Program-made: the position numbers and the translations under genes | NCBI GenBank assembly: GCA_947447095.1 | Contig: CANFIL010000001.1 | Coordinates: 1 to 33,159, forward strand | Length of the DNA stretch: 33,159 bases | Origin: Actinomycetota bacterium | GTDB taxonomy: Bacteria > Actinomycetota > Actinomycetes > S36-B12 > UBA5976 | Direction: 5' to 3' | The notes under the pieces: generated by a model | Databases searched by the model: none | What the model was told of the DNA's origin: nothing | What the model saw: only the letters and a program-made list of their open reading frames with translations | In this document: in pieces, positions 1 to 18,765 of the stretch | Numbering within the stretch: position 1 is the first letter of the stretch | How the letters are laid out: every line of letters starts with the position of its first letter

Positions 1-269
1 AGCGCCTTCAGCAGGCTCTTGTTTGTGTTTGTCTGGTCGTAGTTCTCGTTGTACACAAAAACTGCTGATGGGGCAGCCTCCATGATGAGGTCAAGTTTGA
101 AACCGACAACAATCTGAACTCGAACATCAGCGCCGAATGCTTCGTGCACATTGTCGAGTTGCTGTTGCAAAATGCTGCGACCGTCGCGAAGTGCAGTTAA
201 TGGCTTTGGAAATGGTCGACCCAAGCGGGTTCCCATGCCGGCAGCAAGAATCGTTACCTGGAGTGCCAT
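1..269 (-). CDS. Nucleotidyltransferase, N-terminal part (LicC/IPCT-like alcohol- or sugar-phosphate cytidylyltransferase fold); the rest of the gene lies outside the window
   Basis: Absent from the supplied ORF track because it runs off the window edge. Reading the minus strand from the ATG at 269..267 gives MALQVTILAAGMGTRLGRPFPKPLTALRDGRSILQQQLDNVHEAFGADVRVQIVVGFKLDLIMEAAPSAVFVYNENYDQTNTNKSLLKA, with no stop before position 1. LAAGxGTRLG...PKPL is the glycine-rich NTP-binding signature of the GlmU/RmlA/IspD/LicC fold. NxxYxxxNxxxSL is typical of the LicC-like branch. The ATG overlaps the TAA of the upstream TagF-like gene (TAATG, 271..267). This call replaces track ORF 127..333(-), which is in another frame. 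Confidence 0.65.
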   Translation of the reverse strand, partial: MALQVTILAAGMGTRLGRPFPKPLTALRDGRSILQQQLDNVHEAFGADVRVQIVVGFKLDLIMEAAPSAVFVYNENYDQTNTNKSLLKA

Positions 270-1582
270 TACTGTCCATCTTCCTTACGTGTGATGTGAG
301 GTCCCGTGCCAGTTGCGGCAAGGGATCGTGCACGGGCTAAATCTGAGGAGTGCTGACTAATCGTTTCGCGAAGCGCCGTAAAGAAGCGTTCACTACTCTG
401 ACCAGTCTGCACGTTGTCGAAGTAAAAGTCGCGTAACTGCTGACGTTCTGCAACATAGTCGTCGTGATCGATGACGTGGGCAAGAATGTCGCTGATGTGA
501 TCGATGTTGGATGTGGTCAAAACTTGAGTGGCCACGCTAATTGGGGCGTCAATTCGCAGCTGGTCGATGTTGTCTCGTCGATCGGTGAGCACAAGTGGTG
601 CTTCTGGGCGAAGGTAGAGGAAGTCGAGGCCCACGCTGGAAACGTCGGAAATGAGTACATCAACGTTGGGGAACAGCGCCAAAATATCGCCTGATTCGCG
701 CACTTCGTGTCCAGCCGAAGAGTCACGTTGATTTGCAGACTTGATCGCTTTCACGATGTGCTGGTGATTCTTTTGAATACGATCCTCGGTGGCATCGATG
801 ATGCGAGGGTGCGGCTTGTAAATGACTCGAGTGTTCGCCTGTGCCAGCGCAGCATCAATGATGCGTGGTCCCATCTTTTCCATCGAGGTGTAGTTGTTGG
901 CTTCGTCTTCGCCGGCCCACGTTGGTGCGTAAAGAATTGTGGTGCGATCTGATGCGGTAATACTTGCCTCAGGATGCTGATCAAGTTGTGGACGTCCAAT
1001 ACGTACGAGATTCTTCTCGTTGAATTCGGATAGAGCTGCACGATGACGTTGTACTGCGGCTTCACCCGCAACAAAAACGCGATCGTAGGCTTTTGCCTGA
1101 TTGCTCACCATGCAAATTTTGTCGCTCTCGCCGTGGTTGATGTGCACGTGTGCAAGCTCTCCAACGTTCAGTGACTGAAAATTCGCGACACCGTTGTTGA
1201 CGTAAACCACGGCCTTAAACGGGCTGACACGATAGAGATTCATCAAGTCGGTGAAGTTAGGTACATGCGCCAACGGCAATGTGGTTTTGCCTTCGAGTTC
1301 TTTAAAAGTGTGGATGTTGCGGACAACCAGGGCGAAAGTGAGGTCCTCAGGGTGATTTTCAAAAACTGGTAGCCACTGGGTCAATTGATAGAGCTTTGAG
1401 ACGTTATCTGGGTAATACACAGCCACATCGGCCTGTACGCCACGCTTGGGATCAAAGCCGTGGGGTCCACGAACGTACTTTTCGCGCAGGCCAATAGCGT
1501 CTAGAACAGTGGCAATACCCGATGCCACGGGCTGCGGCACTAAGGACCGTAGAGAATTTGGACTCAATTCGAGGCACTCCAA
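269..1582 (-). CDS. CDP-glycerol/ribitol glycerophosphotransferase family protein (TagF/TagB-like polyol-phosphate transferase)
   Basis: 437-aa ORF. TagF-family motifs are visible: ILYAPTWAGE, YKPHP, and the C-terminal DVLISDVSSVGLDFLYL block. The longest ORF begins with TTG at 1582, and in-frame TTG/GTG codons just downstream are alternatives, so the start is uncertain. Confidence 0.85.
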   Translation of the reverse strand: MECLELSPNSLRSLVPQPVASGIATVLDAIGLREKYVRGPHGFDPKRGVQADVAVYYPDNVSKLYQLTQWLPVFENHPEDLTFALVVRNIHTFKELEGKTTLPLAHVPNFTDLMNLYRVSPFKAVVYVNNGVANFQSLNVGELAHVHINHGESDKICMVSNQAKAYDRVFVAGEAAVQRHRAALSEFNEKNLVRIGRPQLDQHPEASITASDRTTILYAPTWAGEDEANNYTSMEKMGPRIIDAALAQANTRVIYKPHPRIIDATEDRIQKNHQHIVKAIKSANQRDSSAGHEVRESGDILALFPNVDVLISDVSSVGLDFLYLRPEAPLVLTDRRDNIDQLRIDAPISVATQVLTTSNIDHISDILAHVIDHDDYVAERQQLRDFYFDNVQTGQSSERFFTALRETISQHSSDLARARSLAATGTGPHITRKEDGQ

Positions 1583-1660
1583 GCGTTTGTAGAACCAAGT
1601 AAGCGTGGGACAATTCTATCGGGCTGAGCATTCAGGCCCTTTTTCCAAGGAAAGGCGCTC

Positions 1661-3442
1661 ATGTCGCAGTCAGAACAGCCACAACTACGCGTGATCATTG
1701 ACGATCACGCCCAGGTAGATCCTGGGGTTCTGGCCCGGCTGACTTCCCAGATTGGTCATTCTGGCAACACTGCCACCGTCATGCGCGCGCCCATCGAAAT
1801 TCTTGAGGCTGTTATTTCCGCACAATCTCATGGTCCCGTCATTGTGATTGACTCCCAGTTGGTCACAGGACAAGCCATGTTGGATGCGCTCATCCGAGGA
1901 CAGTGGAGCACGAATGCGGCTCTGGTTCGAAAAGGTGTGTCACAACATTTCGACCAAGCCTGCCGAGTCGCAAACAAACACGTTCTTAGCGTCGCATCGT
2001 CAGTTCATCGAGTAACACAGCCCAGCCACGAACAATTAGGACTTGTTCGAATTGGTTCGGGTTCACAGGTGCGTGAAGCACTCGTTGCAGCACGTGGCTA
2101 TGTCAGTGAACTTCGCAGCGCAACTGCGATGACTGACATGTTGACCGTCATCCTTGTTCGGGCGGCGCTTCCCGTTGCACCGTTAGAGCCAACTGGTATG
2201 TGCGAACGAGCAACATCGAACATAGGCGAGGTAATCGTCGAAGCAGATGCGCAAGATGATGAAGATATTCGGATGAAACGGGCATTGCGTTCGAATGACG
2301 GTTTCTATTCAACTTTTGTTTTACGAAAGCTTTCGGCACGAGTCACGATGTTGGCACTGAAGAATGGCTGGCTTCCAAATCAGATCACGTTAGCTTCGCT
2401 CGTGATTTCCGCGGTTGCGGCACTGTTCTTTGCCACTGGTAGTCACGCATTGTTCATTGCGGGCGCATTGCTGGTTCAACTGTCGATCATCGTTGACTGT
2501 TCCGATGGCGAAGTTGCGCGGTACACGGGAGTCTCGTCACAACTCGGTGCTTGGCTCGATGCGGCGACGGATCGCGTTAAAGAATATGCTCTCTACGCTG
2601 GGTTAGCTGTTGGAGCCATGAGCCATGGTGAGAATCTTTGGCGACTAGCGATGGCCTTGGTCGTATTGCAAACTGTTCGCCACTTGAGTGACTACAACTT
2701 TGTTGCAGTCCGCGGTGTTCGAGAATCGGCACTTGTTGTTGTCCCGCTTTCACAAAGTGTCGACAACGGAGTCGCGAGCGCGGGCTCATTGATGGATGCA
2801 TCAGCATCACTCAATTCACGTCGTGCGATTTATTGGCTGAAGCGAGTAATTTATCTTCCTATCGGTGAGCGATGGCTGATCATCTCAGTAGGTGCAGCGG
2901 TCGGCTCGCCTCGACTTGTTTTTAATGTTTTATGGTTTGCAGGCCTCTTTGGTTTGGCGTATGTCACCTTTGGTCGCGTCATGCGAAGTCGTCGCTGGAA
3001 GCATGCTCAGGAAATTTCAGGTTGCGAAATACTCGAGCGACAAATCGATCCGGGTTTCTTTATGAGCTGGTTCTTGGCCGACGGGTCACACCCACTTGCT
3101 GGCCGATTTGGCTGGGCGATTCCTTCAGTACTGCGACTGGTTGAGCTTGGGGTTATTGCATCTGTCTGCAGGTATCACCACATTGGGTACCTATGGCTAT
3201 TCGCTGTTGCATTTCACCATTACGACACGATGTATCGTGCGCTCGCCGGCTTTGAGTTCCCCGCGCAACTTGCTCGACTCGGTCTGGGTGTTGAGATTCG
3301 TACGGCCATGTTCGTACTGTGTGCAGTGAGTTTCACTGCTCCGCTGAATGCCGTATTACTTATTGGTGGCGTCTATTTCAGCGTGTTATTTGTTGGAATT
3401 GCATCCCGACAATGGATAGTTCAACTCACGTCCGCGAAGTAG
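1661..3442 (+). CDS. CDP-alcohol phosphatidyltransferase family membrane protein with a long N-terminal cytoplasmic extension and a C-terminal polytopic extension
   Basis: 593-aa ORF. It carries the canonical signature DCSDGEVARYTGVSSQLGAWLDAATD (nt 2495..2572), which fits D-x2-D-G-x2-A-R-x8-G-x3-D-x3-D. Hydrophobic helices lie before and after the motif. It is transcribed divergently from the TagF-like gene. Confidence 0.85.
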   Translation: MSQSEQPQLRVIIDDHAQVDPGVLARLTSQIGHSGNTATVMRAPIEILEAVISAQSHGPVIVIDSQLVTGQAMLDALIRGQWSTNAALVRKGVSQHFDQACRVANKHVLSVASSVHRVTQPSHEQLGLVRIGSGSQVREALVAARGYVSELRSATAMTDMLTVILVRAALPVAPLEPTGMCERATSNIGEVIVEADAQDDEDIRMKRALRSNDGFYSTFVLRKLSARVTMLALKNGWLPNQITLASLVISAVAALFFATGSHALFIAGALLVQLSIIVDCSDGEVARYTGVSSQLGAWLDAATDRVKEYALYAGLAVGAMSHGENLWRLAMALVVLQTVRHLSDYNFVAVRGVRESALVVVPLSQSVDNGVASAGSLMDASASLNSRRAIYWLKRVIYLPIGERWLIISVGAAVGSPRLVFNVLWFAGLFGLAYVTFGRVMRSRRWKHAQEISGCEILERQIDPGFFMSWFLADGSHPLAGRFGWAIPSVLRLVELGVIASVCRYHHIGYLWLFAVAFHHYDTMYRALAGFEFPAQLARLGLGVEIRTAMFVLCAVSFTAPLNAVLLIGGVYFSVLFVGIASRQWIVQLTSAK

Positions 3443-3467
3443 ACATTCGATACGGGATAATGAGCAG

Positions 3468-4277
3468 GTGAGCAATACCAATCGCCCTGCTAAGCCAACA
3501 GTGGCGCAAATCCGCGAGGTTACACAACCAGCAGACATTCTGAGTCGGGCCAATTCCGAGCACTGGCTCAATGATGTGTACTTGCGCAAGGTCTCGGTGT
3601 ATTTGACCCGCCATTTGGTGATGTTGAACGTTAAGCCAAACACGGTCACGATGATCATGATTGCAATTGGTAAGTTCGCCGCTCTCGCACTTTTGATTCA
3701 AGGCTTGCCAGGTGCATTCCTTGCCGCTGCTCTGGCTCAGTACCAAATGGTGTGGGATTGCAGCGATGGTGAAGTGGCGCGCTGGCAAGAGAGATATTCC
3801 CCAGCTGGCATCTTCTTGGACAAAGTTGCGCATTACACAGTTGAAGGATTGATCCCGCTGACGTTAGGCATCAGAGCTGCGGGCGGCATTTCAGTTTTTA
3901 AAGAGGCAACGGTGCAGTGGTGGCCGTGGTACGGAGCACTGTTATCCGTTGTCATTTTGTGGAATAAAGCCATGAATGATGCGGTGCATGTAGCTCGATC
4001 TCACAGTGGGTTAGAAAAACTGGAGGACGTTAAGGCTGTCAGTGCGCCACAACATTCCTTCCTGCGCTCACTACGTAACGCAACTCGCATCTTCCCATTC
4101 CAACGCATCTTCCACAGCATTGAAATGACCATGATCATTTTTGTAGCAGCAGTTGTTGACGCGTGGCGAGGGGATCTTCGCGCAACACAATTAACGCTGC
4201 TCGCGATGTTGTCACTTGCCATTGTGACGTTGATCGGTCATTTCATTTCGATCATGTCGTCTAGCAGGCTTCGATGA
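3468..4277 (+). CDS. CDP-alcohol phosphatidyltransferase family protein, variant signature (last Asp replaced by His)
   Basis: 269-aa ORF with a GTG start. The signature is DCSDGEVARWQERYSPAGIFLDKVAH (nt 3756..3833). The first three acidic positions and G/AR/G are conserved, but the fourth Asp is His (cat, 3831..3833). Multi-pass hydrophobic profile. The stop overlaps the next start (ATGA, 4274..4277). Confidence 0.85.
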   Translation: MSNTNRPAKPTVAQIREVTQPADILSRANSEHWLNDVYLRKVSVYLTRHLVMLNVKPNTVTMIMIAIGKFAALALLIQGLPGAFLAAALAQYQMVWDCSDGEVARWQERYSPAGIFLDKVAHYTVEGLIPLTLGIRAAGGISVFKEATVQWWPWYGALLSVVILWNKAMNDAVHVARSHSGLEKLEDVKAVSAPQHSFLRSLRNATRIFPFQRIFHSIEMTMIIFVAAVVDAWRGDLRATQLTLLAMLSLAIVTLIGHFISIMSSSRLR

Positions 4278-5140
4278 CTCGTTCAGTTGCTGCCGTCATC
4301 ATCACGATGGGAACGCGGCCAGTTGAATTTAAGCGCGCACTTGATTCTCTGCTAGCTCAGACTGGAATTGAACTTGACGTTGTAGTTGTAGGAAATGCCT
4401 GGGATCCTGTTGGCCTACCAGTCGGTGTGAAAAGTTTTTATTCGCCAAGTAACTTGGGAATTCCTGGCGGTAGGACTGCAGGTACGGATTTAGTTTCGGG
4501 CGATTACATGTTCTATCTGGACGATGACGCTTACCTACCGGAAACTGACACCATCAGCCGAATGCTTGATATCTTGCAGACGCGTCCTGAAATTGGGATT
4601 GTTCAGCCGCGGGCAACTGATCCTGAAACTGGACAAACCCCATCGCGCTGTGTGCCCCGTCTCATTGCGGGTGACCCAGCGCGCGCAAGTGTTGGTACCA
4701 CCTTGTGGGAAGGTGCTGGCATGCTGCTTTCGCGTGACACGTTGGCTCGTACGGGCGGTTGGGCGGACGAATTTTTCTATGCTCATGAGGGCATGGACTT
4801 ATGTTGGCGAATTTGGGATGGTGGCCAGATGTCTTGGTATGCCGCCGACATCATCACGCACCATAGTTCACAGAGTCCGACTCGTCACGCGGTGTTTTGG
4901 CATCAGACGGCTCGTAATCGGGTATGGCTTGCGAAGCGGAATTTACCTTGGCTCATCATGCCGATTTATCTTTTTGTGTGGATCTCGATAACAACTCTTC
5001 GTGCACGGAATGCAAAAAATTATGCTGCGTGGTGGAAGGGCTTTATTGAGGGCGTGCGAACAACTCCGAAGGGTCGTCGCGCCATGAAATGGTCAACTGT
5101 TTGGCGACTTACAAAAGCTGGCCGGCCACCGATTATTTAG
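4274..5140 (+). CDS. Family 2 glycosyltransferase (GT-A fold)
   Basis: 288-aa ORF. The N-terminus, AAVIITMGTRPVEFKRALDSLLAQTG..VVVVGNA, is typical of GT2, and a DxD-type motif is present (YLDDDAY). A C-terminal hydrophobic helix follows. Translationally coupled to the upstream gene. Confidence 0.85.
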   Translation: MTRSVAAVIITMGTRPVEFKRALDSLLAQTGIELDVVVVGNAWDPVGLPVGVKSFYSPSNLGIPGGRTAGTDLVSGDYMFYLDDDAYLPETDTISRMLDILQTRPEIGIVQPRATDPETGQTPSRCVPRLIAGDPARASVGTTLWEGAGMLLSRDTLARTGGWADEFFYAHEGMDLCWRIWDGGQMSWYAADIITHHSSQSPTRHAVFWHQTARNRVWLAKRNLPWLIMPIYLFVWISITTLRARNAKNYAAWWKGFIEGVRTTPKGRRAMKWSTVWRLTKAGRPPII

Positions 5141-6653
5141 TCTTGATGCGGTTGTTTCCTTCGGTACACGAGAAATCGCCAGCATTGACAGCGCCAGTGT
5201 CCGAACTTGCAGAAGGTGTTGCAATTACCACCTTGCGAGGTGCACTCCAATCAGGTCCAACCACAATCACGATTGATTTAGTGAGCGAGTTGTCCTTCTT
5301 CAACAGTTTGGTGTGCGCAGAATAAGCCAGTGAGTCGGCACCAGCTTTGAAGCGCGAGTTGTAATGCACTTCGGTTGCCGTGACTTTGATATCCGAGTTA
5401 CCTGTGCTGGTGATTTTGTACCCAAGTTTGCGAAGTTGCGTTGCCGCCTTATTCGCTAGCCCTGAGGTTTTTGTTCCATTCAAAACAATGACGTGTACGG
5501 AGTCCGCAGGTGTAATGAGTGTCGGAGTGGATGCCTTTGGTGCTGGCGATGCGCTCGCACTTGCGGAGGTGCTCGGTGTTGCCGATGCACTGTCGGAAAC
5601 CGGTGGCCATGGCTTATCGTTTTGAATTGCTTTCCACAAGTCTGCCGTCTCGCTAGTCCAATGCACATTGCCATCACCAATAAGTTCGTAAGGCGTGGTG
5701 ACAAAAGTGATGTTGGCAGGCTTGAGGTAGGAAAGTGACAACGCAAAATCCTCGAGCGCTTTCATGCTGCTCAAGTTCTTACTTGTCGTCAGAGATTCGG
5801 TCACAACATTTAACAGTCGATACATCAATGCTGGGTTCGTTAACAGATGCTTTTCTTGCATGCCACGAATCATGGAGCTGAGGAATTCTTGTTGGCGTTG
5901 AATTCGGCCAAGGTCGCTACCATCACCGATAGATTCGCGCGCACGCACGAATGCCAATGCTTGCTTGCCGCTGATTGTGCTGTATCCCGCAGGGAGATTA
6001 AGTCCACTTCCGCCTTGACCAGGTACGTATGGGTCGTACACCGGCGTTGTGAGACAGACTTTGACGCCGCCGAGAGTGTTTACAACTGACTTGAAGGCTT
6101 TGAAGTCAAGTACTAAGAATTTATCGATTGTGATTCCAGTTTGATTTTGCAAAGTCTTAATTGTGCAAACTGGGCCACCGTAAGCAAACGCAGCATTGAA
6201 CTTTGTTTGCCATGGACCCACGACGCTGCCATCACTTTGCTTGCATGGCCCGATCGAAACGAAAGAATCGCGTGGGATGGAAACAACGAGTGCAGACTTG
6301 CGGCCTTCGTAAAGATGAACGAGCAATGCTGTATCTGCGCGCGCTCCGCCAACATTGCCAAAGCCAGCACCCTGGTCAACTCGAGTATCGCTACCCATGA
6401 CGAGGAAATTTGTAGCGCTCGTGTCGCTTGGGATGTATGGTGCGGGAGTTCCGTTGAGATCGCTCTCATCCACTGTGTGAATGTTTTTATTCAAATTGTT
6501 TAAGGCGTAAACCGCGCCACCGCCGACCGCTGTGACCGTCATGATCAGCACTGAGGCAAAAGCCGTCAGGCGACGAGTCCAAGGACCAACACTCGGCGGC
6601 ACCGTAGTCGGTTGCGCGCGCCGCTTACCGCGGGCTGGTTGATTCTTGGACAT
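5133..6653 (-). CDS. LytR-CpsA-Psr (LCP) family glycopolymer-peptidoglycan ligase with C-terminal LytR_C-like domain
   Basis: 506-aa ORF. An N-terminal basic segment plus one TM helix is followed by the LCP core, FLVMGSDTR...RADTALLVHL...VVSIPRDS. A Ser/Ala/Pro linker and a C-terminal VIVLNGTKTSGLANKAATQLRKLGY module follow. The stop (5133..5135) overlaps the convergent GT2 stop (5138..5140). Confidence 0.9.
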   Translation of the reverse strand: MSKNQPARGKRRAQPTTVPPSVGPWTRRLTAFASVLIMTVTAVGGGAVYALNNLNKNIHTVDESDLNGTPAPYIPSDTSATNFLVMGSDTRVDQGAGFGNVGGARADTALLVHLYEGRKSALVVSIPRDSFVSIGPCKQSDGSVVGPWQTKFNAAFAYGGPVCTIKTLQNQTGITIDKFLVLDFKAFKSVVNTLGGVKVCLTTPVYDPYVPGQGGSGLNLPAGYSTISGKQALAFVRARESIGDGSDLGRIQRQQEFLSSMIRGMQEKHLLTNPALMYRLLNVVTESLTTSKNLSSMKALEDFALSLSYLKPANITFVTTPYELIGDGNVHWTSETADLWKAIQNDKPWPPVSDSASATPSTSASASASPAPKASTPTLITPADSVHVIVLNGTKTSGLANKAATQLRKLGYKITSTGNSDIKVTATEVHYNSRFKAGADSLAYSAHTKLLKKDNSLTKSIVIVVGPDWSAPRKVVIATPSASSDTGAVNAGDFSCTEGNNRIKTK

Positions 6654-6789: not shown

Positions 6790-8682
6790 ATGCTTCCCCG
6801 CAAATCACTTCAGCGTGCCCAGGTAGGGCTTATTGCGTTGTCGTTGTGTGGAACTTTCATCGCTTTTCAAGCCCCTGTCCAGGCTTTTCGTGGGTATGCG
6901 CCGCCCGTCCAAAATACGCAGATTTCGCTGTCAGCAGTAGCCCCACAAACTGTTAAATCTGGCAAGCAGATGGTGTTGTTCGGCGAGCATACGGTTTCGG
7001 AGTTCACGTTGGTTGGGGTGACGTGGCAGGGCCGGATTGATCCAACTTCTCGATTTGAGGTGCGAGTTCGCGAACATGGCGTCTGGTCCGATTGGCAAAG
7101 CCTGTCGTGGAGTAACGAACACGGTGCTGATGCGTCGAGTTCCGAAGCAAAAGCAGCCCGCGAAGGAACAGACCCTCTGCTCACAGCTCTTGCAACAGGT
7201 GTTGCGGTACGGGTAACTAACGAGTCTGGCACTTTGCCGACGGATGTTTCGCTGTCGTTAGTGAACTCAAATCTGACGTCACAGGATCGTGCGCTTTTAT
7301 CGTCACGTGCGGTCACCGCAACGGTGCCATCGACGGTGACATCGCCACAAGGTGCAGTTGTTCCTCGGCCGAAACTCATCACACGTGCGCAGTGGGGTGC
7401 TAATGAATCGTGGCGAAATCAAGATCCTGGGATGGGCACAAAAATCATTGCGGGTTTCTTGCATCACACTGCGAGCACAAACAGTTATTCCGCTGATCAA
7501 GGCCCGGCGCAAATGCGCAATCTGTTTTCTTACTACACCCAGAGTTTGCACTACAAGGATCTTGCATACAGCTTTTTGGTCGATAAGTACGGAAATGTGT
7601 ATGAGGGACGTTCGGGTTGTCCTCGCGTGGTGACGACTGCGTGCGATGGTCCGGCCCGACCTGCTATTGGTGCTCACACTGCGGGGATGAATCTTAATAC
7701 GTTTGCTATTTCGGCAATCGGAAATTATCACGAAGCAAGTCCAGGTACGCAAGCACTGCAAAAGATGGATGATGCGATTGCCGGGCTGATGGCTTGGAAG
7801 ATTGCTCCATACGGCCTGGATCCCAAAGCGATCGCAAACATTCCCGTGGGAAGCGATCCACATCATTTGTCACGCTATCGAGAAGGGGACATCGCGCATG
7901 TCCTGACAATTTCGGGGCATCGCGATGTTGGTCAAACGGTTTGCCCGGGGCAGTACTTATATCCAGAGTTACCTGCAATTCGAGATCGAATTTCTGCGCT
8001 ACTTACTCCCGTTGTTGCAGTTCCTAAAGCGTCACCGGCCGTCATCGCTGAAGGAGCAAGTACCTCGATCGCTATCACGTCGGTAATCGCAAGTGGAGCG
8101 GCATGGTCAATCGATGTGATTCGCGATGTGGATAGCGCTGTTGTTGGTCATGCAGAAGGTACGACAACTTCCGTTGGACCGATTTCATTTGGTTGGACTC
8201 ACCTTGATACACGTTTGAAGTTGTTGCCAAGTGGTACGTATACCGTGCGCGTGCAACAGTCAGTAGCTCCTCGAGCTGCGTCTTTGTCGCCAACGCCAAC
8301 ACCGACGGCTTCCCGATCGGCTTCTCCGACGCCTTCGACGACCCCCGTTGCACCAGTGGTGAAGACGGGCACAACCACAGTTGTTATTGCAGCTAAACCA
8401 ACTTTGCCGTCATCGCCAACCGTGACGTACCGTTCGAAAACTCGCGCCTGGCTCGTTTGGAAGGCGGCATCGAGTCTGATTCCAGTGACCTATCAATACC
8501 GTGTCCTGGACAAGCAAACGAATAAGTGGTCCGGATGGAAGATTGCCAAGGCAGCAAACTCGCCATTGACTGTCCGTAAACTCGTCAAGTTTCATGGGTA
8601 CAAAGTTCAACTGAAAGCCGTCAGTGCTGTTGGGGAATCCGTGATTCGGGAAACGTCCTACCTGCATAAGTCTGCGAAATAA
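6790..8682 (+). CDS. Secreted N-acetylmuramoyl-L-alanine amidase (amidase_2/PGRP domain) with Pro/Thr/Ser linker and Fn3-like C-terminal domain
   Basis: 630-aa ORF with a signal peptide (LIALSLCGTFIAFQAPVQA). Amidase_2 blocks are present: ITRAQWGANESWR, GFLHHTAS, YSFLVDKYGNVYEGR, GAHTAGMNLNTFAISAIGNY and ISGHRDVGQTVCPG. A PTPTPT-rich linker is followed by an Fn3-like repeat (TVTYRSKTRAWLVWKA...YQYRV...WSGWK). Confidence 0.85.
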   Translation: MLPRKSLQRAQVGLIALSLCGTFIAFQAPVQAFRGYAPPVQNTQISLSAVAPQTVKSGKQMVLFGEHTVSEFTLVGVTWQGRIDPTSRFEVRVREHGVWSDWQSLSWSNEHGADASSSEAKAAREGTDPLLTALATGVAVRVTNESGTLPTDVSLSLVNSNLTSQDRALLSSRAVTATVPSTVTSPQGAVVPRPKLITRAQWGANESWRNQDPGMGTKIIAGFLHHTASTNSYSADQGPAQMRNLFSYYTQSLHYKDLAYSFLVDKYGNVYEGRSGCPRVVTTACDGPARPAIGAHTAGMNLNTFAISAIGNYHEASPGTQALQKMDDAIAGLMAWKIAPYGLDPKAIANIPVGSDPHHLSRYREGDIAHVLTISGHRDVGQTVCPGQYLYPELPAIRDRISALLTPVVAVPKASPAVIAEGASTSIAITSVIASGAAWSIDVIRDVDSAVVGHAEGTTTSVGPISFGWTHLDTRLKLLPSGTYTVRVQQSVAPRAASLSPTPTPTASRSASPTPSTTPVAPVVKTGTTTVVIAAKPTLPSSPTVTYRSKTRAWLVWKAASSLIPVTYQYRVLDKQTNKWSGWKIAKAANSPLTVRKLVKFHGYKVQLKAVSAVGESVIRETSYLHKSAK

Positions 8683-8685
8683 AAC

Positions 8686-9390
8686 ATGTGGAATGTCATT
8701 GCGCGATCAGCACGCGCCTGCGGATCATCGCCGATGTACACATGGGTAAGTAACGTTGGGCGTATTGAACTCAGCGGAACAACTTTTCTTAACGGGGTAT
8801 CCAAGGCTGCAAACATGATGCGGGATGGACTCGATGCCGAGGCTGGCGATGACGTTTTCATCGACCTTGGTAATCATTGGCAGTCGCCGGTTTGGATTGG
8901 GGCTGCACTCAGCGTGCAAGCAGTCATTACTTCACAGCCTGAAAATGTATTGGCGGTTGTTTCACGTGACTCGGTGAATGATGCACAGGGTTCTCGCCGA
9001 ATTGTTGTCATCAGCCGTGATCCATTTGGAATGCCAGAAAAGAATCTTGATGCTGCAGTGATAAACGGATCACTTGAGGTGCGTGGTTTCGGAGATGTCT
9101 TTAGTCCGATGGGAAGCTTTCAGGATATCGATCCGGTGCTGCGAAATGCTGAAAGTGTTCGATGCCTCAGCGAGTTACGTGAAACAGCAGCTTCACTTAT
9201 TGAGTCTCACAACATCGTCACCAGTTCTCGTATTGCCGTAGCTGGAATCACAGATCTATTGGACCGCGCAATGTGGCACGTCGTTATCCCGGTTATTGCC
9301 CAATGCAGCGTTGTGTTACTTGATGGAATCGAAGATCATGCAAAGACGTGCGAAGTTGAGCAAGTCGATCGCCTCGTCGTTATTGACTAA
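8686..9390 (+). CDS. Conserved actinobacterial protein of unknown function (TIGR03089-like; resembles the N-terminal region of adenylate-forming enzymes)
   Basis: 234-aa ORF starting 3 nt after the amidase stop. The segment ELSGTTFLNGVSKAANMMRDGLDAEAGDDVFIDLGNHWQSPVWIGAALSVQAVI matches my recollection of the TIGR03089 family pattern (…NWVAKTANLL.DELD…GD.V.L.LP.HWQ…). Its position between an LCP/cell-wall block and a sugar-1-P nucleotidyltransferase is the usual actinobacterial context. The family assignment is from memory and unverified. Confidence 0.6.
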   Translation: MWNVIARSARACGSSPMYTWVSNVGRIELSGTTFLNGVSKAANMMRDGLDAEAGDDVFIDLGNHWQSPVWIGAALSVQAVITSQPENVLAVVSRDSVNDAQGSRRIVVISRDPFGMPEKNLDAAVINGSLEVRGFGDVFSPMGSFQDIDPVLRNAESVRCLSELRETAASLIESHNIVTSSRIAVAGITDLLDRAMWHVVIPVIAQCSVVLLDGIEDHAKTCEVEQVDRLVVID

Positions 9391-9407: not shown

Positions 9408-10493
9408 GTGGAGTCCATGGAAGCAATCTTGTTAGTTGGTGGCCAAGGAACACGGCTTCGCCCATTAACGATTTCGACCCCAAAGCCGATGCTTCCTGTC
9501 GCAGGCTTTCCTTGTACGTCTCACCAAATCGCACTCGCAGCAAGTGCCGGCATTGATCGAATTGTGCTTGGGACTTCGTATCGCGCAGAAGTCTTTGAAG
9601 AATATTTCTCAGGTCAAGATCTTGGTGTTGAAATTCGCTACGCCGTAGAAAGCGAACCTTTAGGTACCGGTGGTGCAATTCGAAACGCTGCTGAACAACT
9701 CACATGTGGTCCTGATGATCCAGTTGTCATATTCAACGGCGATGTTTTAACAGGTTTAGACATCTCAGATCTCGTTTCGAAATGGCGTGAAGCTCGTGCA
9801 GATGTGGCTTTGTATCTCACCCGCGTCGAGGACCCTCGTGCATATGGACTTGTTCCTACCGATGCTGCGGGGCGGGTATTGGAATTCAAAGAGAAGCCAA
9901 CCACGCCAGAAGAAATCGTGACCGATCAAATTAATGCGGGATGTTATGTCTTTAAGCGAAGTGTCATCGATCGAATTCCTGCCGGCCAAGTGGTCTCGGT
10001 TGAACGCGAGACATTCCCGGAACTGCTTTCTACAGGTGCCACAGTCATTGGAGTGGTCGATGACGGCTATTGGCTAGATCTTGGAACACCTCTTGCATTT
10101 GCGCAGGGCTCTGCCGATTTAGTCCGTGGAATTGCGCCAAGCCCGCTGCTTGCAGGCCGTACTGGTGATGCTGTAATTCACGACAGTGCAGTTGTACATG
10201 ACACAGCAATCGTTTCAGGTGGCACGTACGTCGGCGCACATGTTGTTATCGGTGAAAATGCGATTGTCGATGCCAGTGTCATTTATGACGGCGTAACGAT
10301 CGGCTCAGGCGCTCGCGTTGTCCGATCAATTGTCAGTACGAACGCGAGTATTGGCTCGCAGAGTTCAATTACTGACACTGTTATTGCAGAGAATGCGTCG
10401 CTTGGGGCACATAACGAATTAAATTTCGGAGCACGAGTATTTCCTGGTGCCGAAATCTCAGATTCTGCAATCCGATTTTCGTCCGACCGCTAA
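9408..10493 (+). CDS. Sugar-1-phosphate nucleotidyltransferase with C-terminal left-handed beta-helix (mannose-1-phosphate guanylyltransferase-like)
   Basis: 361-aa ORF. The N-terminus LLVGGQGTRLRPLTISTPKPMLPV is the NDP-sugar pyrophosphorylase signature. The C-terminal third contains hexapeptide-like repeats (VVIGENAIVDASVIYDGVTIGSGARV...). The start is either GTG 9408 or ATG 9417. Confidence 0.85.
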   Translation: MESMEAILLVGGQGTRLRPLTISTPKPMLPVAGFPCTSHQIALAASAGIDRIVLGTSYRAEVFEEYFSGQDLGVEIRYAVESEPLGTGGAIRNAAEQLTCGPDDPVVIFNGDVLTGLDISDLVSKWREARADVALYLTRVEDPRAYGLVPTDAAGRVLEFKEKPTTPEEIVTDQINAGCYVFKRSVIDRIPAGQVVSVERETFPELLSTGATVIGVVDDGYWLDLGTPLAFAQGSADLVRGIAPSPLLAGRTGDAVIHDSAVVHDTAIVSGGTYVGAHVVIGENAIVDASVIYDGVTIGSGARVVRSIVSTNASIGSQSSITDTVIAENASLGAHNELNFGARVFPGAEISDSAIRFSSDR

Positions 10494-14761: not shown

Positions 14762-17700
14762 GTGATGTTTCGTTCCCTAGCCAAATCGCACACAAACGCA
14801 AAGAAGTTGCCAAGTTTCATCATTGGGATTGCGTTAGTGGCTGGAACTACAGTGGTTGCTGCAAGTCCAGCGTCGGCTGCTGGTAGAGACATCGCATGTT
14901 CTGTATCAGGAACTTTCAGCATCAACGACAACAACGTTGTGAATTCGTCCAGCAGCGATTGTTCCGGCGCAGTCGTCATTCCTGCCGACGTGACTCGTAT
15001 TGGAGCATGGGCCTTTGCCAATAGGCACATCACAAGCCTCGACTTTGAAACCGGCAGTCAGCTGGTTGCCATCGATATGTATGCCGCCGAATTCTCTGAC
15101 CTGGCTACAATTCATTTGCCAACCGGACTTCAGACCATCGGCCACGGTGCTTTTACATACGCCAAAATCACAACAATTTCGATACCAGGAACGGTTGAGA
15201 CGATTACTGGAAGCCCGTTTAATTCAACGAACCTCCAGACCGTGATATTTGAAGAACGAGTCACCCCCATCATCAATTTGAGTGTTGACACGTTCCAAGA
15301 CAGCCGCGACCTCAGTTCGGTTACTTTCAGAGGGCCAATCGAAGTGCGTGGTGGAATTCGCTCGCCGAAGAGCAAAGAAGGCCTGAAATGGGCAGGCTGG
15401 TCCAAATCTGTTGATGGTCCAGTCGTTTCGTTCCCACTGTCGATTACAGAATCTGGGGGTGCCACGTTGTACCCCGTTTGGGTCCCCCCATTCGTCGAAG
15501 TTTTTAACTGTTCTTTAGGTGGAACTTTCAGGATCGTCGATCACGTCGTAACTTCGTCGACCAATGACTGTGTCGGAGAAGTTGTGGTCCCCGCAGACGC
15601 CATTGAAATTGGCTCATGGGCTTTCTCAGGAAAAAACCTCACCAGCATGAGCTTCGCTGCTGGCAGCCAATTAACACAAATTTCAAATTACGCTTTTGAA
15701 TACTCTCAATTGTCGTCGATAACCTTGCCAGCTGGCCTAACATCCATCGGCGGTGGAGCGTTTACAAGCACGAAAATTACATCGATCGTTTTACCTTCTG
15801 GACTGAAGTCAATCGGCGACGCAGCTTTTTATGGAACGAAAATTACTTCTATTTCGATTCCGGGAAACGTCGAAACAATTAGCGGTAGCCCATTCCGAAA
15901 CAGCGATCTTGTGACTGCGACCTTTGAACCACGTATTGCTTCAAGTTTCAACTTGGCGGGCTCTACGTTTCAGAATGCGTCCAATCTGACCTCCGTTATC
16001 TTCAGCGGCCCAGTTCAAGTGAGCAATTTGGGAACCATCTCAAAAGCGGACTTTAACTGGACGGGTTGGTCAACGTCTCCGGGCGGTTCTGTGATTTCCT
16101 TCCCGTTCTCCGTCACGGATTCTGCAGGAGTGACGTTGTATCCAAAGTGGACTGCCCAAATCATCGCGACAGGTAACTGCTCGTTGGGTGGAACGTTCAG
16201 AATTGTTGATCACATAATTAAATCGTCCACTGATGATTGTGCTGGCGTGGTCTCGGTTCCTGCCGATGTGACTGAGATCGGCTACACAGCATTCTCAGGC
16301 AAGAACGTCACGAGCGTGAACATTGAGGCTGGCAGTCAGCTCACAAGAATCGCAGAGTATGCCTTCGAATTTACGCCACTCACTTCAATCAATTTGCCAA
16401 ACGGATTTAAATCAATCGGGCACGGAGCTTTTACTTTCGCAAAGCTTTCGACTATTTCGATCCCAGGAACTGTCGAAGCTATTGAAGGTTCTCCTTTTTA
16501 TGGCGCTGCCCTTGAGACTGTGGTCTTTGAACCACGCGTAGCTTCCCAGTTGTCGACGTCAAACGATGCATTCATCTACACACGCAAACTACGCTCAGTC
16601 ACATTTATGGGCCCTATCAACTTCGATAGCGCACCGTTCGGGCATACGCGTTACGCACAAGATTGGTTAGGTTGGTCTACAAGTTTGGGTGGTCCCATTG
16701 TGACGTACCCGCTTTCAGTGACAGATCCTGCTGGTGTAGTTCTTTACCCGAACGCATCACCGAGAACTTATACGGCAACCTACGATTCACGCGGTGGAAC
16801 GGAAGTGGCTCCGGGCAGCATTGTTGGTGGGGAAATCGAATTCCCTGTTTCACCTACGCGGGCGGGTTACACATTTGATGGCTGGTTTGATTCGCCCAAT
16901 TATTGGGATTGGTCTCGAGGACCAGTTACTTTGTGGGATCAAAACAATGGGGCGACTTTCTATGCAAAGTGGATCCCAGACACTCATGTGGTGAATTTCA
17001 ACTCTAAGGGTGGGTCCGCGGTTTCTGCAGGTTCGTTTGTAACCGATGGTGAAATTTCATCAGCACCGGAGGCTCCTGTTCTTGATGGCTACAGGTTGGG
17101 TGGCTGGTCTGCAACTGACGGGGGATCTGAAATCTCGTTCCCATATGCACCCGGCGGCATACAAGATGTAACTCTTTACGCGGTTTGGATTCGCAACACA
17201 CCGACAATTACTTCTGGTTCTACACCGGACTCTCAGGTAGTTAGTATTCCTGCTGGATTGACTGAGGCGGTAGTTCCGGCCACTGCGAGCTTGCCAGGAA
17301 TCAAATTTGGACTACCTGGAACAGGCGGCCAAGTCATTGCAACGGTGGCTCCGACAGTGAATCCCGCTAATGTTGCGCATACGCCATTTACAGTGAATGG
17401 CTCAACTGTAATTGTTGACATTGAGATAACCGGCGTCACTGGAGACGTCACTGTCTGTATTGACGGTGGTCCCCGAGATCACATCTATCACTACACCGGT
17501 GGAGCGTGGGTGGACCTTCCACAGCGAACCTATGTAAATGGACAGGTCTGTGGCGTCACTTCGAGTTACTCGCCATTCACGGCTGCGACCCCTCTTCCGT
17601 ACAAGCCGTACGTCATGGAGCGTCCTTCGATTTCTGGAAATGCTCAACAGGACACTTACCTGTCTTCAACGATGGGAACCTGGGCAGCTGATCCAGTCGC

Positions 17701-18556
17701 TACTAAATCGGTGCAGTGGTATCGCTGTGACAAGAATGTGTCTGCAGGTCTCACAACGTTTACTGCTGCAATGAAATGCAAGAAAATTGCTGGCGCTACG
17801 AAAGCGAGCTACAAAGTTTCTCTTGCCGACCAGGGAAAGTACCTTTCGAGTTTGGTAAAAGCTACTAACACTGTTGGGTCAGCTACGTTAACGACTAAGG
17901 CGATTCGTGTTCCTCTAGCGACGCAGCCAAAGTTGAAAACACTCGCAAAGCTCTCAGGCACTGCCGCAAAGGGCAAGCAAGTCACTTTGACTGCCGGCAA
18001 GTGGACCGCGAACCCAGTCGCCGCTACATCTCAGCAGTGGTATCGCTGTGAGAAGTCGGTTAAGGCAGGACTTGATGCATTGGCAACTGCTGCGAAGTGC
18101 ACGAAGGTCCCTGGTGCTACCGGCCTTCGATACAGGGTTGTAACCGCGGATCTGGACATGTATCTCACGGCTGTCATCACGGCAAAGAACTCGCAAGGTG
18201 TCGTTGTGATTACGGCTAAGAGCGTTCATGTACCTGGAACAAAGCCAACGTCAAAGACATCACCTTCTATTTCAGGAGCTGCTGTTTTGGATGGTGCGCT
18301 TCAAGCAACTTATGGCAAGTGGACGGCTGTTCCAGAAGCAACCACCTCGGTGCAGTGGTATCGCTGTGATGCGTCTGTTTCGGCTGGCCGTGGATCACTT
18401 TCGACTTCGAGTTGTACGAAGATTGCCGGCGCGACGGGCTCCCGATACAAGGTAACTGTCGCGGATCAAGGCAAGCGTCTCGCTGTTGAAGTTAAGGCTA
18501 AGAATTCATACGGAAATAATTCCGCACATTCAAAGTCAACTGCTCAGGTGAATTAA
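14762..18556 (+). CDS. Large secreted modular protein: signal peptide, 3 BspA-type leucine-rich-repeat modules, 2 Listeria-Bacteroides (Flg_new/InlB-B-like) repeats, and 3 C-terminal Cys-pair repeats
   Basis: 1264-aa ORF. GGAGA lies 7 nt before the ATG at 14765 (GTG 14762 is the alternative start). The signal peptide ends in ASPASAAG. LRR segments follow the pattern I-x-x-x-AF-x-x-x-x-L-x-S-I-x-LP. Flg_new-type repeats are present (YTATYDSRGGTEV...AGYTFDGWFDS..., VVNFNSKGGSAV...DGYRLGGWSATDGG...LYAVW). I found no LPXTG motif, C-terminal TM helix or lipobox. Confidence 0.9.
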   Translation: MMFRSLAKSHTNAKKLPSFIIGIALVAGTTVVAASPASAAGRDIACSVSGTFSINDNNVVNSSSSDCSGAVVIPADVTRIGAWAFANRHITSLDFETGSQLVAIDMYAAEFSDLATIHLPTGLQTIGHGAFTYAKITTISIPGTVETITGSPFNSTNLQTVIFEERVTPIINLSVDTFQDSRDLSSVTFRGPIEVRGGIRSPKSKEGLKWAGWSKSVDGPVVSFPLSITESGGATLYPVWVPPFVEVFNCSLGGTFRIVDHVVTSSTNDCVGEVVVPADAIEIGSWAFSGKNLTSMSFAAGSQLTQISNYAFEYSQLSSITLPAGLTSIGGGAFTSTKITSIVLPSGLKSIGDAAFYGTKITSISIPGNVETISGSPFRNSDLVTATFEPRIASSFNLAGSTFQNASNLTSVIFSGPVQVSNLGTISKADFNWTGWSTSPGGSVISFPFSVTDSAGVTLYPKWTAQIIATGNCSLGGTFRIVDHIIKSSTDDCAGVVSVPADVTEIGYTAFSGKNVTSVNIEAGSQLTRIAEYAFEFTPLTSINLPNGFKSIGHGAFTFAKLSTISIPGTVEAIEGSPFYGAALETVVFEPRVASQLSTSNDAFIYTRKLRSVTFMGPINFDSAPFGHTRYAQDWLGWSTSLGGPIVTYPLSVTDPAGVVLYPNASPRTYTATYDSRGGTEVAPGSIVGGEIEFPVSPTRAGYTFDGWFDSPNYWDWSRGPVTLWDQNNGATFYAKWIPDTHVVNFNSKGGSAVSAGSFVTDGEISSAPEAPVLDGYRLGGWSATDGGSEISFPYAPGGIQDVTLYAVWIRNTPTITSGSTPDSQVVSIPAGLTEAVVPATASLPGIKFGLPGTGGQVIATVAPTVNPANVAHTPFTVNGSTVIVDIEITGVTGDVTVCIDGGPRDHIYHYTGGAWVDLPQRTYVNGQVCGVTSSYSPFTAATPLPYKPYVMERPSISGNAQQDTYLSSTMGTWAADPVATKSVQWYRCDKNVSAGLTTFTAAMKCKKIAGATKASYKVSLADQGKYLSSLVKATNTVGSATLTTKAIRVPLATQPKLKTLAKLSGTAAKGKQVTLTAGKWTANPVAATSQQWYRCEKSVKAGLDALATAAKCTKVPGATGLRYRVVTADLDMYLTAVITAKNSQGVVVITAKSVHVPGTKPTSKTSPSISGAAVLDGALQATYGKWTAVPEATTSVQWYRCDASVSAGRGSLSTSSCTKIAGATGSRYKVTVADQGKRLAVEVKAKNSYGNNSAHSKSTAQVN
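14897..16765 (+). repeat. Three tandem, diverged modules of about 200-225 aa inside the LRR protein gene (14897..15508, 15509..16177, 16178..16765)
   Basis: Each module starts C-S-[VL]-[SG]-G-T-F-x-I-x-D...S-S-x-x-D-C-x-G-x-V-x-[IV]-P-A-D. Each ends W-x-G-W-S-x-S-x-x-G-P/S-x-V-x-[FY]-P-[LF]-S-[IV]-T-[ED]-x-x-G-x-x-L-Y-P. The DNA copies have diverged, and I saw no long identical stretches. Confidence 0.8.
16766..17191 (+). repeat. Two Listeria-Bacteroides-type (Flg_new-like) repeats within the LRR protein gene
   Basis: The pattern Y-x-[VA]-x-[YF]-[DN]-S-[RK]-GG-[TS]-x-V...G-Y-x-[FL]-[DG]-GW...[FL]-YA-[KV]-W occurs twice in tandem. Confidence 0.7.
17624..18553 (+). repeat. Three tandem repeats of about 100-106 aa at the C-terminus of the LRR protein (17624..17926, 17927..18244, 18245..18553)
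   Basis: The consensus is SG-x-A-x-x-G-x-x-L-x-A-x-x-G-x-W-T-A-x-P-x-A-T-x-S-x-QWYRC-x-x-x-V-x-AG...C-[KT]-K-[IV]-x-GAT-x-x-x-Y-[KR]-V-x-x-AD-x-G-K/M-Y/R-L. The exact 17-mer cagtggtatcgctgtga occurs at 17714, 18035 and 18353, a spacing of 321 and 318 nt. Confidence 0.85.
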
Positions 18557-18662: not shown

Positions 18663-18716
18663 GTATGTGACCTTCTGCTTATTAACCAGGTGATAGATCT
18701 GTGCCACGTTGCGCAG

Positions 18717-18748
18717 GTGTCGACGGTTCGAGTTTGTCGGGGTCAACT
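18717..18748 (+). repeat. Degenerate direct copy of the 3' half of tRNA-Lys (variable loop, T-arm, acceptor 3' strand); an att-like scar or part of a decayed tRNA
   Basis: 18719..18748 (gtcgacggttcgagTTTgtcggggTcAact) aligns without gaps to 13972..14001 (gtcgacggttcgagCCCgtcggggCcTact). There is an exact 14-mer, then an exact 7-mer in register, giving 25/30 identical on the same strand. Four of the five differences are C-to-T transitions. Confidence 0.65.
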
Positions 18749-18765
18749 CAATTAGAGTTGTAAAC

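Follow-up and report, generated by a model that had tools for sequence, protein, structure and literature searches.

In Bacillus subtilis 168 and Staphylococcus epidermidis, poly(glycerol phosphate) wall teichoic acid is made by TagO, TagA, TagB, TagD, TagF, the TagGH exporter and LytR-CpsA-Psr (LCP) ligases; this pathway is the system against which we compare a distinct envelope locus. We uncovered this locus at the start of a 33,159-base stretch of DNA (hereafter the window), with which contig C1 of a 1.28-Mb metagenome-assembled genome begins (G000; 153 contigs, 75% complete). The nearest public relatives of this genome are designated Candidatus Nanopelagicales or freshwater Actinomycetota. 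The locus is centered on a cassette of genes for a family 2 glycosyltransferase (GT2), two integral-membrane class I CDP-alcohol phosphotransferases, one long (CPT_L) and one short (CPT_S), a TagF-like enzyme, a nucleotidyltransferase (NT) and a TagG–TagH exporter, which together probably make and export a teichoic-acid-like, phosphodiester-containing wall glycopolymer.

Like the wall teichoic acid pathway, the cassette pairs an enzyme of the TagF family (PF04464) with a TagG/TagH exporter and lies next to an LCP ligase; a WecA/TagO homologue is encoded elsewhere, all genomes checked, G000 among them, having two PF00953 genes, one of the MraY and one of the WecA/TagO type; and the CDP-activated donor is predicted to come from a dedicated nucleotidyltransferase. 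In contrast to that pathway, TagA (WecG family, PF03808) was not found in the cassette genomes G000, G011 and G003, nor TagD (TIGR01518) in any of five cassette genomes; the cassette NT has the NTP_transf_3 (LicC/IPCT) fold; the TagF-like protein is divergent and matches neither solved TagF nor solved TarL by sequence; and the two CDP-alcohol phosphotransferases are added. The initial annotation had read the locus as a departure from the textbook TagO/TagA/TagB/TagF route, which is supported, and had proposed to look for a TagO/WecA-type primase gene to the left of the window; such a gene lies elsewhere in the genome.

The best sequence and structure matches of both phosphotransferases are the archaeal IPCT-DIPPS (AF0263, PDB 4mnd) and AF2299 (PDB 4o6m). 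As in IPCT-DIPPS, a nucleotidyltransferase-fold domain precedes the CDP-alcohol phosphotransferase membrane domain in CPT_L, and the signature form DG(C)DGE(I/V)AR is common to the cassette proteins and both archaeal ones. Unlike IPCT-DIPPS, CPT_L lacks a GxGxR loop in its N-terminal domain and is accompanied by a separate NT gene, in a context of wall-polymer export and ligation rather than solute synthesis; unlike either archaeal protein, it bears a C-terminal DUF5941 extension of ~200 aa. The LicC/LicD phosphocholine and PntC phosphonate decoration pathways provide relatives of NT and likewise involve the transfer of a CDP- or CMP-activated small head group to a glycan. In contrast to them, the cassette is devoid of a LicD-type transferase, its own transferases being of the CDP-alcohol phosphotransferase and TagF types, and neither PEP mutase nor choline kinase was found in the five cassette genomes. 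A further related system is an actinomycete operon with the order CPT_L–NT–(glycerol-1-phosphate-dehydrogenase-like)–CPT_S–GT2–TagG–TagH, for whose Streptomyces version the searchable literature yielded only a remark on synteny (PMC13118837). It shares with the window homologous versions of CPT_L (with DUF5941), CPT_S (with a His at the fourth Asp position of the signature, D4), GT2, TagG, TagH and NT. The window cassette differs from it in lacking the dehydrogenase, in having an NT of another subfamily (28% identity, yet homologous with an hhalign probability of 97.9%) in adding the TagF-like gene and in being optional within its genus.

An accessory block between core genes

The genes for GT2, CPT_S, CPT_L, the TagF-like enzyme, NT, TagG and TagH constitute one accessory block of ~7 kb that is gained and lost together, and that sits between a core LCP gene and a core block of a second, membrane GT2 (GT2b), a UDP-glucose dehydrogenase and purEK. 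A survey of presence and absence in 24 other species of the genus recovered CPT_L orthologues (E < 1e-190) in six of them (G001, G003, G005, G011, G017 and G021), and TagF-like orthologues in the same six, with a contig fragment in G015. Four of the eight species with a completeness of 90% or more possess the cassette. G008, G009 and G018 are without it, and there the LCP gene lies immediately beside GT2b. Hence, of the genes that the initial annotation had grouped into one cassette, those for the TagF-like enzyme, CPT_L, CPT_S, GT2 and NT are indeed co-inherited, including the co-conservation of both phosphotransferase paralogs with the TagF-like gene (six of six, plus the fragment); the LCP gene is a core gene that is also present in cassette-free species and, like GT2b, falls outside the optional block.

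As the window begins within NT, the rest of the block has to be sought beyond it. The remainder of NT, together with TagG, TagH, GT2b and the UDP-glucose dehydrogenase, is on contig C128 of G000, from which it follows that the assembly breaks inside NT; in relatives the order runs from NT (230–232 aa when full-length) through an ABC-2 permease (TagG), a TagH-like ATPase, the convergent GT2b and the UDP-glucose dehydrogenase to purE/purK. The continuation on C128 starts at about residue 97 and is 98% identical to its orthologue. Since ~7 codons are missing between C1 (1–269) and C128 (2–403), an intact NT in G000 is only presumed. Both the missing part of NT and the transporter, which the initial annotation had proposed to look for to the left of the window, are thereby accounted for. 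The TagH-like protein, next to the ABC-2 permease, scores 187 bits against NF010066, below the 320-bit equivalog cut-off, so that we assign it at the level of the family.

The six other cassette-bearing species of the genus share this gene order, as does another family, which argues that the arrangement is not due to chance. In a wider set of 38 loci with full flanks, drawn from other genomes of a species-level genome collection, CPT_L co-occurs with CPT_S and NT in 37 loci each, with GT2 in 33 (in all of which it follows CPT_S), with the TagF-like gene in 31, with TagG in 28 and with LCP in 26. We considered and set aside a mobile-element origin of the block: at both junctions the genes adjoin tightly whether or not the cassette is there; repeats were not searched for.

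Three putative CDP-alcohol transferases

By sequence scores, CPT_L and CPT_S are not housekeeping lipid synthases. Cassette-free genomes have four PF01066 genes and cassette genomes six. In G011, a cassette genome of 98% completeness (G000 being 75% complete), the other four are a PgsA (151.8 bits; cut-off 109), a PIP synthase (197.9; cut-off 170), a ClsA-like protein just under its cut-off (237.2 against 240) and a PIPS-like paralog, so that the housekeeping roles are already filled elsewhere. In comparison, CPT_L reaches only 67 bits against the 170 of the PIPSynth model and 20.5 against the 109 of pgsA, CPT_S 32.5 against 170, and both are far under every curated equivalog cut-off for lipid synthases (PgsA, ClsA, PIP synthase and PssA). 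The initial annotation had named a placement of both paralogs squarely within PgsA, PIP synthase or cardiolipin synthase as the outcome that would overturn its reading, and these figures go the other way. The archaeal relatives draw on soluble CDP-alcohols rather than processing lipids, and AF2299 is able to bind CDP-glycerol (PMC4634129). In a maximum-likelihood tree over 126 columns, with CPT_L, CPT_S, PgsA, ClsA, PIPS and the PIPS-like paralog of the genus, and the corresponding segments of AF2299 and DIPPS, CPT_S forms a clade of its own (support 100/99); the phylogenetic placement proposed earlier succeeds to that extent and fails for the deep branches, for which reason we placed the two proteins by score rankings instead.

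CPT_L combines a nucleotidyltransferase-fold domain (residues ~10–200), a CDP-alcohol phosphotransferase domain and the DUF5941 membrane extension (~376–591). Its signature DxxDGxxARx8GxxxDxxxD is intact (DCSDGEVARYTGVSSQLGAWLDAATD, residues 279–304), and an Asp occupies D4 in all 88 CPT_L-like genes that were classified among 102 scanned loci. The AlphaFold2 model (pLDDT 89.6) displays an alpha/beta domain, a six-helix catalytic bundle and about six further helices that correspond to DUF5941. Its best Foldseek matches are IPCT-DIPPS (4mnd), which ranks first over 482 columns, and AF2299, which is also the best phmmer match (54 bits). The N-terminal domain alone matches IPCT (2xme) in Foldseek; there is no Pfam or NCBIfam match to a nucleotidyltransferase signature in residues 1–220, the first strand (RVIIDDHAQVDPG) is without the glycine loop, and the whole protein scores 58 against a cut-off of 580 for the IPCT-DIPPS model NF041135, as would not be expected of a bifunctional IPCT/DIPP synthase. 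Because it retains the fold in the model without the sequence signature, we interpret this domain as a degenerate cytidylyltransferase-like domain, as in AF2299. The DUF5941 region (window 2858–3442) also shows two polar blocks that are invariant across 47 homologues, PIGERW (400–405) and HHYDxxYR (519–526), which may point to a further site for binding or catalysis within the membrane domain.

In CPT_S the motif takes the form DxxDGxxARx8GxxxDxxxH (DCSDGEVARWQERYSPAGIFLDKVAH), with His in place of the fourth Asp. We saw this His in all loci first examined; over the 102 scanned loci it is present in 93 of 95 CPT_S-like genes, the remaining two having Ala, while neither the three metal-binding Asp nor the other signature positions vary. 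The only solved relatives of CPT_S are IPCT-DIPPS and AF2299, and the PF01066 match exceeds the gathering cut-off without the full D1–D4 signature. By homology it is a member of the family, though an atypical one at the position of the catalytic base.

The TagF-like protein adopts a GT-B fold in its AlphaFold2 model (pLDDT 83.5), and its top Foldseek matches include TagF (3l7i, E 2e-10) and TarL (8va1) alongside generic GT-B proteins. Sequence and profile searches of the PDB returned no match, so that membership in PF04464 rests on the Pfam match and the fold. Its invariant blocks HxHxNHGESDK, YAPTW and KPHPR resemble the HG, YAPT(W/F)R and KxHP motifs of the family and may hold counterparts of the catalytic and pyrophosphate-binding His of S. 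epidermidis TagF.

The CDP-alcohol donor and the wider neighborhood

The NT is predicted to be a LicC/PntC/IPCT-like nucleotidyltransferase that supplies a CDP-alcohol: the full-length orthologue matches PF12804 with 56 bits, which places it in that family, and among solved structures a family profile best matches PntC (6pd1, E 1.8e-8), then GlmU, LicC and IPCT. Since TagD is missing, NT is the sole candidate supplier of a CDP-alcohol in these genomes, and would also serve the additional, canonical PF04464 enzyme found in G000 and G003. The likeness to PntC and LicC had suggested a phosphonate or phosphocholine decoration, which we dropped as the leading idea upon finding no PEP mutase or choline kinase in five cassette genomes.

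Pointers to the alcohol come from other Actinomycetes. DUF5941 proteins are encoded in 92 of 294 high-quality genomes of this class, among them 20 of 20 genomes (7–10 Mb) of a Streptomyces-like genus, and in their loci CPT_L is adjoined by NT, CPT_S, GT2 and TagGH. In the Streptomyces-like genus the operon introduced above lies beside hopanoid genes; at L122:15895–19365, for example, it is directly upstream of two genes of the squalene/phytoene synthase family and an amine oxidase (hopanoid-type), which probably explains the "crtB" neighbor named in PMC13118837. The NT gene overlaps the dehydrogenase-like gene in 11 of 22 loci of the class sample, and the dehydrogenase-like protein scores 247 bits against NF002022, under the equivalog cut-off. 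Some loci with this pair hold transferases similar to those of the window: CPT_S of the dehydrogenase-bearing loci L126, L136 and L137 is 48–52% identical to that of the window, and the TagF-like proteins of L136 and L137 are 43–44% identical to the TagF-like protein of the window. As the same set of transferases is common to both modes of supply, glycerol phosphate emerges as the leading candidate for the alcohol, and CDP-glycerol as the leading candidate donor. Also counting towards glycerol phosphate are the lack of TagD, of PEP mutase and of choline kinase, the second PF04464 enzyme, and a glycerophosphodiesterase in the acI-type loci. The latter are minimal versions with NT, CPT_L, CPT_S, GT2, the glycerophosphodiesterase and VanY but no TagF-like gene. 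In L079 (12356–15176), NT, CPT_L and CPT_S are followed by genes for a 256-aa protein, a GT2, a glycerophosphodiester phosphodiesterase and a VanY carboxypeptidase, with no TagF-like, TagGH or LCP gene nearby. Such loci without any TagF suggest that the CPT pair is able to carry out phosphodiester chemistry alone. For the window itself glycerol phosphate is no more than a candidate, because the dehydrogenase is missing and NT belongs to another subfamily. The dehydrogenase was also considered as a required partner of the cassette and rejected, because among the cassette genomes only G011 has one, and there it is in another island with an NT of its own.

That island is a second variable envelope region, marked by a large DUF6077 membrane protein adjoining a DUF3027 gene (G000 C23:2244–4316, L144:9501–11561 and L145:1460–3544). 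In G003 and G000 it includes a canonical 608-aa TagF-type enzyme of PF04464 and a GT4; in G011 the NT–glycerol-1-phosphate dehydrogenase pair occupies the same position instead. A DUF6077 protein is likewise encoded in the window (18709–20853), directly downstream of a gene (14762–18556) for a predicted surface protein of 1264 aa, with BspA-type leucine-rich repeats, Listeria-Bacteroides repeats and an Ig-like domain, that is unusually large for a genome of ~1.3–1.7 Mb.

Gene calls and domain matches agree with the six cassette and LCP genes originally annotated at the start of the window (Table), and so do the overlaps reported between them: a TAATG overlap couples the TagF-like gene translationally to NT and an ATGA overlap couples GT2 to CPT_S. 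The plus-strand unit does converge on the LCP gene, with the 3′ ends of GT2 and LCP overlapping by 8 bp. Judged by geometry alone, the divergent intergenic region presumably holds the promoters of both units; a promoter scan of its 78 bp found no match to the sigma-70 consensus. Downstream of LCP, the Amidase_2, TIGR03089 and guanylyltransferase genes are syntenic in all loci of the genus, with or without the cassette, and form a block that we take to resemble the mycobacterial Rv3264c–Rv3268 neighborhood.

Table. Features at the start of the window, with strand and supporting domain matches
Feature	Positions	Strand	Evidence or remark
NT, NTP_transf_3 nucleotidyltransferase (5′ 89 codons)	3-269	-	PF12804, 34 bits
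TagF-like Glyphos_transf protein, 437 aa	269-1582	-	PF04464, 48.8 bits (cut-off 22.1)
Divergent intergenic region, 78 bp, between the TagF-like and CPT_L genes	1583-1660		
CPT_L, long CDP-alcohol phosphotransferase, 593 aa	1661-3442	+	PF01066, 49.8 bits (gathering cut-off 22 bits); DUF5941, 31.6 bits
CPT_S, short CDP-alcohol phosphotransferase paralog, 269 aa	3468-4277	+	PF01066, 32.3 bits (gathering cut-off 22 bits)
GT2 glycosyltransferase, 288 aa	4274-5140	+	PF00535
LCP (LytR-CpsA-Psr) glycopolymer-to-peptidoglycan ligase, 506 aa	5133-6653	-	PF03816, 149.8 bits; TIGR00350; LytR_C
Amidase_2 wall hydrolase	6790-8682	+	Core flank
TIGR03089 protein	8686-9390	+	130.5 bits (cut-off 85); core flank
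Mannose-1-phosphate guanylyltransferase	9408-10493	+	NF052502, 506 bits (cut-off 440); core flank

A proposed route, its rivals and its significance

Based on these observations, we propose a route in which NT would condense CTP with a common alcohol phosphate, with glycerol phosphate as the leading candidate. GT2 would extend, on the cytoplasmic face, a polyprenyl-phosphate-linked primer begun by the WecA/TagO homologue, and the membrane-embedded CPT_L/CPT_S pair, being of the AF2299/DIPPS type, would add alcohol-phosphate units to it. This step would replace the missing linkage and priming of the TagA/TagB type, and the absence of such partners fits the supply of that chemistry by GT2 and the CPT pair. 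The TagF-like enzyme would then add or polymerize further units, TagGH would export the product and the adjacent LCP enzyme would ligate it to peptidoglycan. The CDP-alcohol, the lipid-linked glycan acceptor, the order of the steps, the division of labor between CPT_L, CPT_S and the TagF-like enzyme, the export, the ligation and the structure of the polymer are what we infer from the observed gene content, co-inheritance, folds and motifs and from the non-housekeeping status of the phosphotransferases. The original suggestion of a wall-polymer locus in which such phosphotransferases either decorate with a phospho-alcohol or prime or link the polymer by a different chemistry is supported in its outline, its chemistry still being inferred.

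Several observations weigh against this route, or against glycerol phosphate as its substrate. The best solved relative of NT is a phosphonate cytidylyltransferase, with GlmU next and LicC only thereafter. Coupling to the dehydrogenase is seen in none of the 13 loci with the NT subfamily of the window, as against all 11 loci with the other subfamily; furthermore, G011 holds both the cassette NT and the separate NT–dehydrogenase pair, so that the two NTs may activate different substrates. Inositol-1-phosphate synthase is encoded in all genomes of the genus that were checked, making inositol phosphate available as well. The deep branches of the phosphotransferase tree are long and unresolved, and CPT_S, in which the presumed catalytic-base Asp is missing, may be non-catalytic. 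A TagF-like enzyme can also act as a decorator that makes a single transfer: FtaD, for one, attaches a single phospho-N-methylthreonine to a glycan (bioRxiv 10.64898/2026.02.12.704994). Finally, the searchable literature yielded no papers on DUF5941 and no experimental study of the cassette gene set or of its CPT_L/CPT_S/NT/GT2/TagGH core.

These points bear on three other explanations. If CPT_S were a dead partner, i.e., a scaffold or regulatory subunit in a heterodimer, then only CPT_L and the TagF-like enzyme would be active. D4 is the putative catalytic base, a D-to-N change at this position abolishes the activity of PIP synthase, and CDP-alcohol phosphotransferases are dimers (PMC4634129), all of which, together with the His found there in 93 of 95 genes and the pairing with CPT_L in 37 of 38 loci, would accord with such a role. 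We nevertheless consider it doubtful, because the metal-binding Asp and the remaining signature are strictly retained, His is able to serve as a general base, and its strict conservation, rather than drift, points to a function at the D4 site. Unlikely, too, is a cassette that merely decorates, with CPT_L, CPT_S and the TagF-like enzyme each acting as single-transfer enzymes that place single phospho-alcohol groups, glycerol phosphate or some other small alcohol phosphate, on a glycan made by GT2, GT2b and other glycosyltransferases. The precedent of FtaD, the resemblance of NT to LicC and PntC of decoration pathways, the several extra glycosyltransferases in larger versions of the locus and the want of a TagF-like gene in many loci, including the Streptomyces-like ones, would be accommodated by it. 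Three different CDP-alcohol transferases seem excessive for a single decoration, though, a dedicated ABC exporter suggests a complete polymer pathway, and neither PEP mutase nor choline kinase turned up in the five cassette genomes.

It is very unlikely that CPT_L, CPT_S and NT make a membrane lipid head group or a soluble phosphodiester, of the di-inositol-phosphate or glycerophospho-inositol type, and merely adjoin wall genes. This would agree with DIPP synthase and AF2299 being the closest relatives of the CPTs, with the availability of inositol-1-phosphate synthase and with NT, CPT_L and CPT_S being the minimal universally conserved core; against it speak the near-universal linkage to GT2 and the frequent linkage to TagGH and LCP, the joint loss of all cassette genes, the TagF-like gene and TagGH included, the lack in these loci of a phosphatase gene to finish a solute, and the four lipid-synthase paralogs encoded elsewhere.

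Going further, one may speculate that CPT_L and the His-bearing CPT_S form a heterodimeric membrane primase/polymerase, which would use CDP-glycerol to assemble chains of glycerol phosphate on an acceptor linked to a lipid and, together with NT, GT2 and TagGH, would constitute the long-sought LtaS-independent route to the poly(glycerol phosphate) wall and lipoteichoic acids of Actinobacteria, the window then being a streamlined, optional version with a different supply of alcohol phosphate. We regard this fuller scheme as quite unlikely. The LtaS-independent synthesis of poly(glycerol phosphate) lipoteichoic acid by Actinobacteria has been stated as an open question (PMC3196553), for which the conserved core is a speculative candidate. 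Class I CDP-alcohol phosphotransferases are undocumented in wall teichoic acid pathways in the searchable literature, where we also found nothing on teichoic acids of Nanopelagicales or on a Streptomyces glycerol-1-phosphate dehydrogenase in connection with CDP-glycerol. The window contributes the dehydrogenase-free variant with its distinct NT subfamily, the clean presence/absence polymorphism within a genus and the family-wide replacement of Asp by His in CPT_S.

To our knowledge, the envelope chemistry of the abundant freshwater Actinobacteria is essentially unknown. Polymers of the teichoic acid type influence how phages adsorb, how cations are bound and how the cell wall turns over. A complete polymer module that one species has and a close relative lacks is what one would expect if the cell surface varied under pressure from phages or grazers. 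The reach of the CPT_L/CPT_S/NT/GT2/TagGH core extends beyond these organisms, to about a third of the sampled Actinomycetes and all sampled Streptomyces-like genomes. If class I CDP-alcohol phosphotransferases do build or prime a wall polymer, they would represent a second enzyme fold in teichoic-acid biosynthesis and could account for the synthesis of poly(glycerol phosphate) polymers by Actinobacteria in the absence of LtaS.

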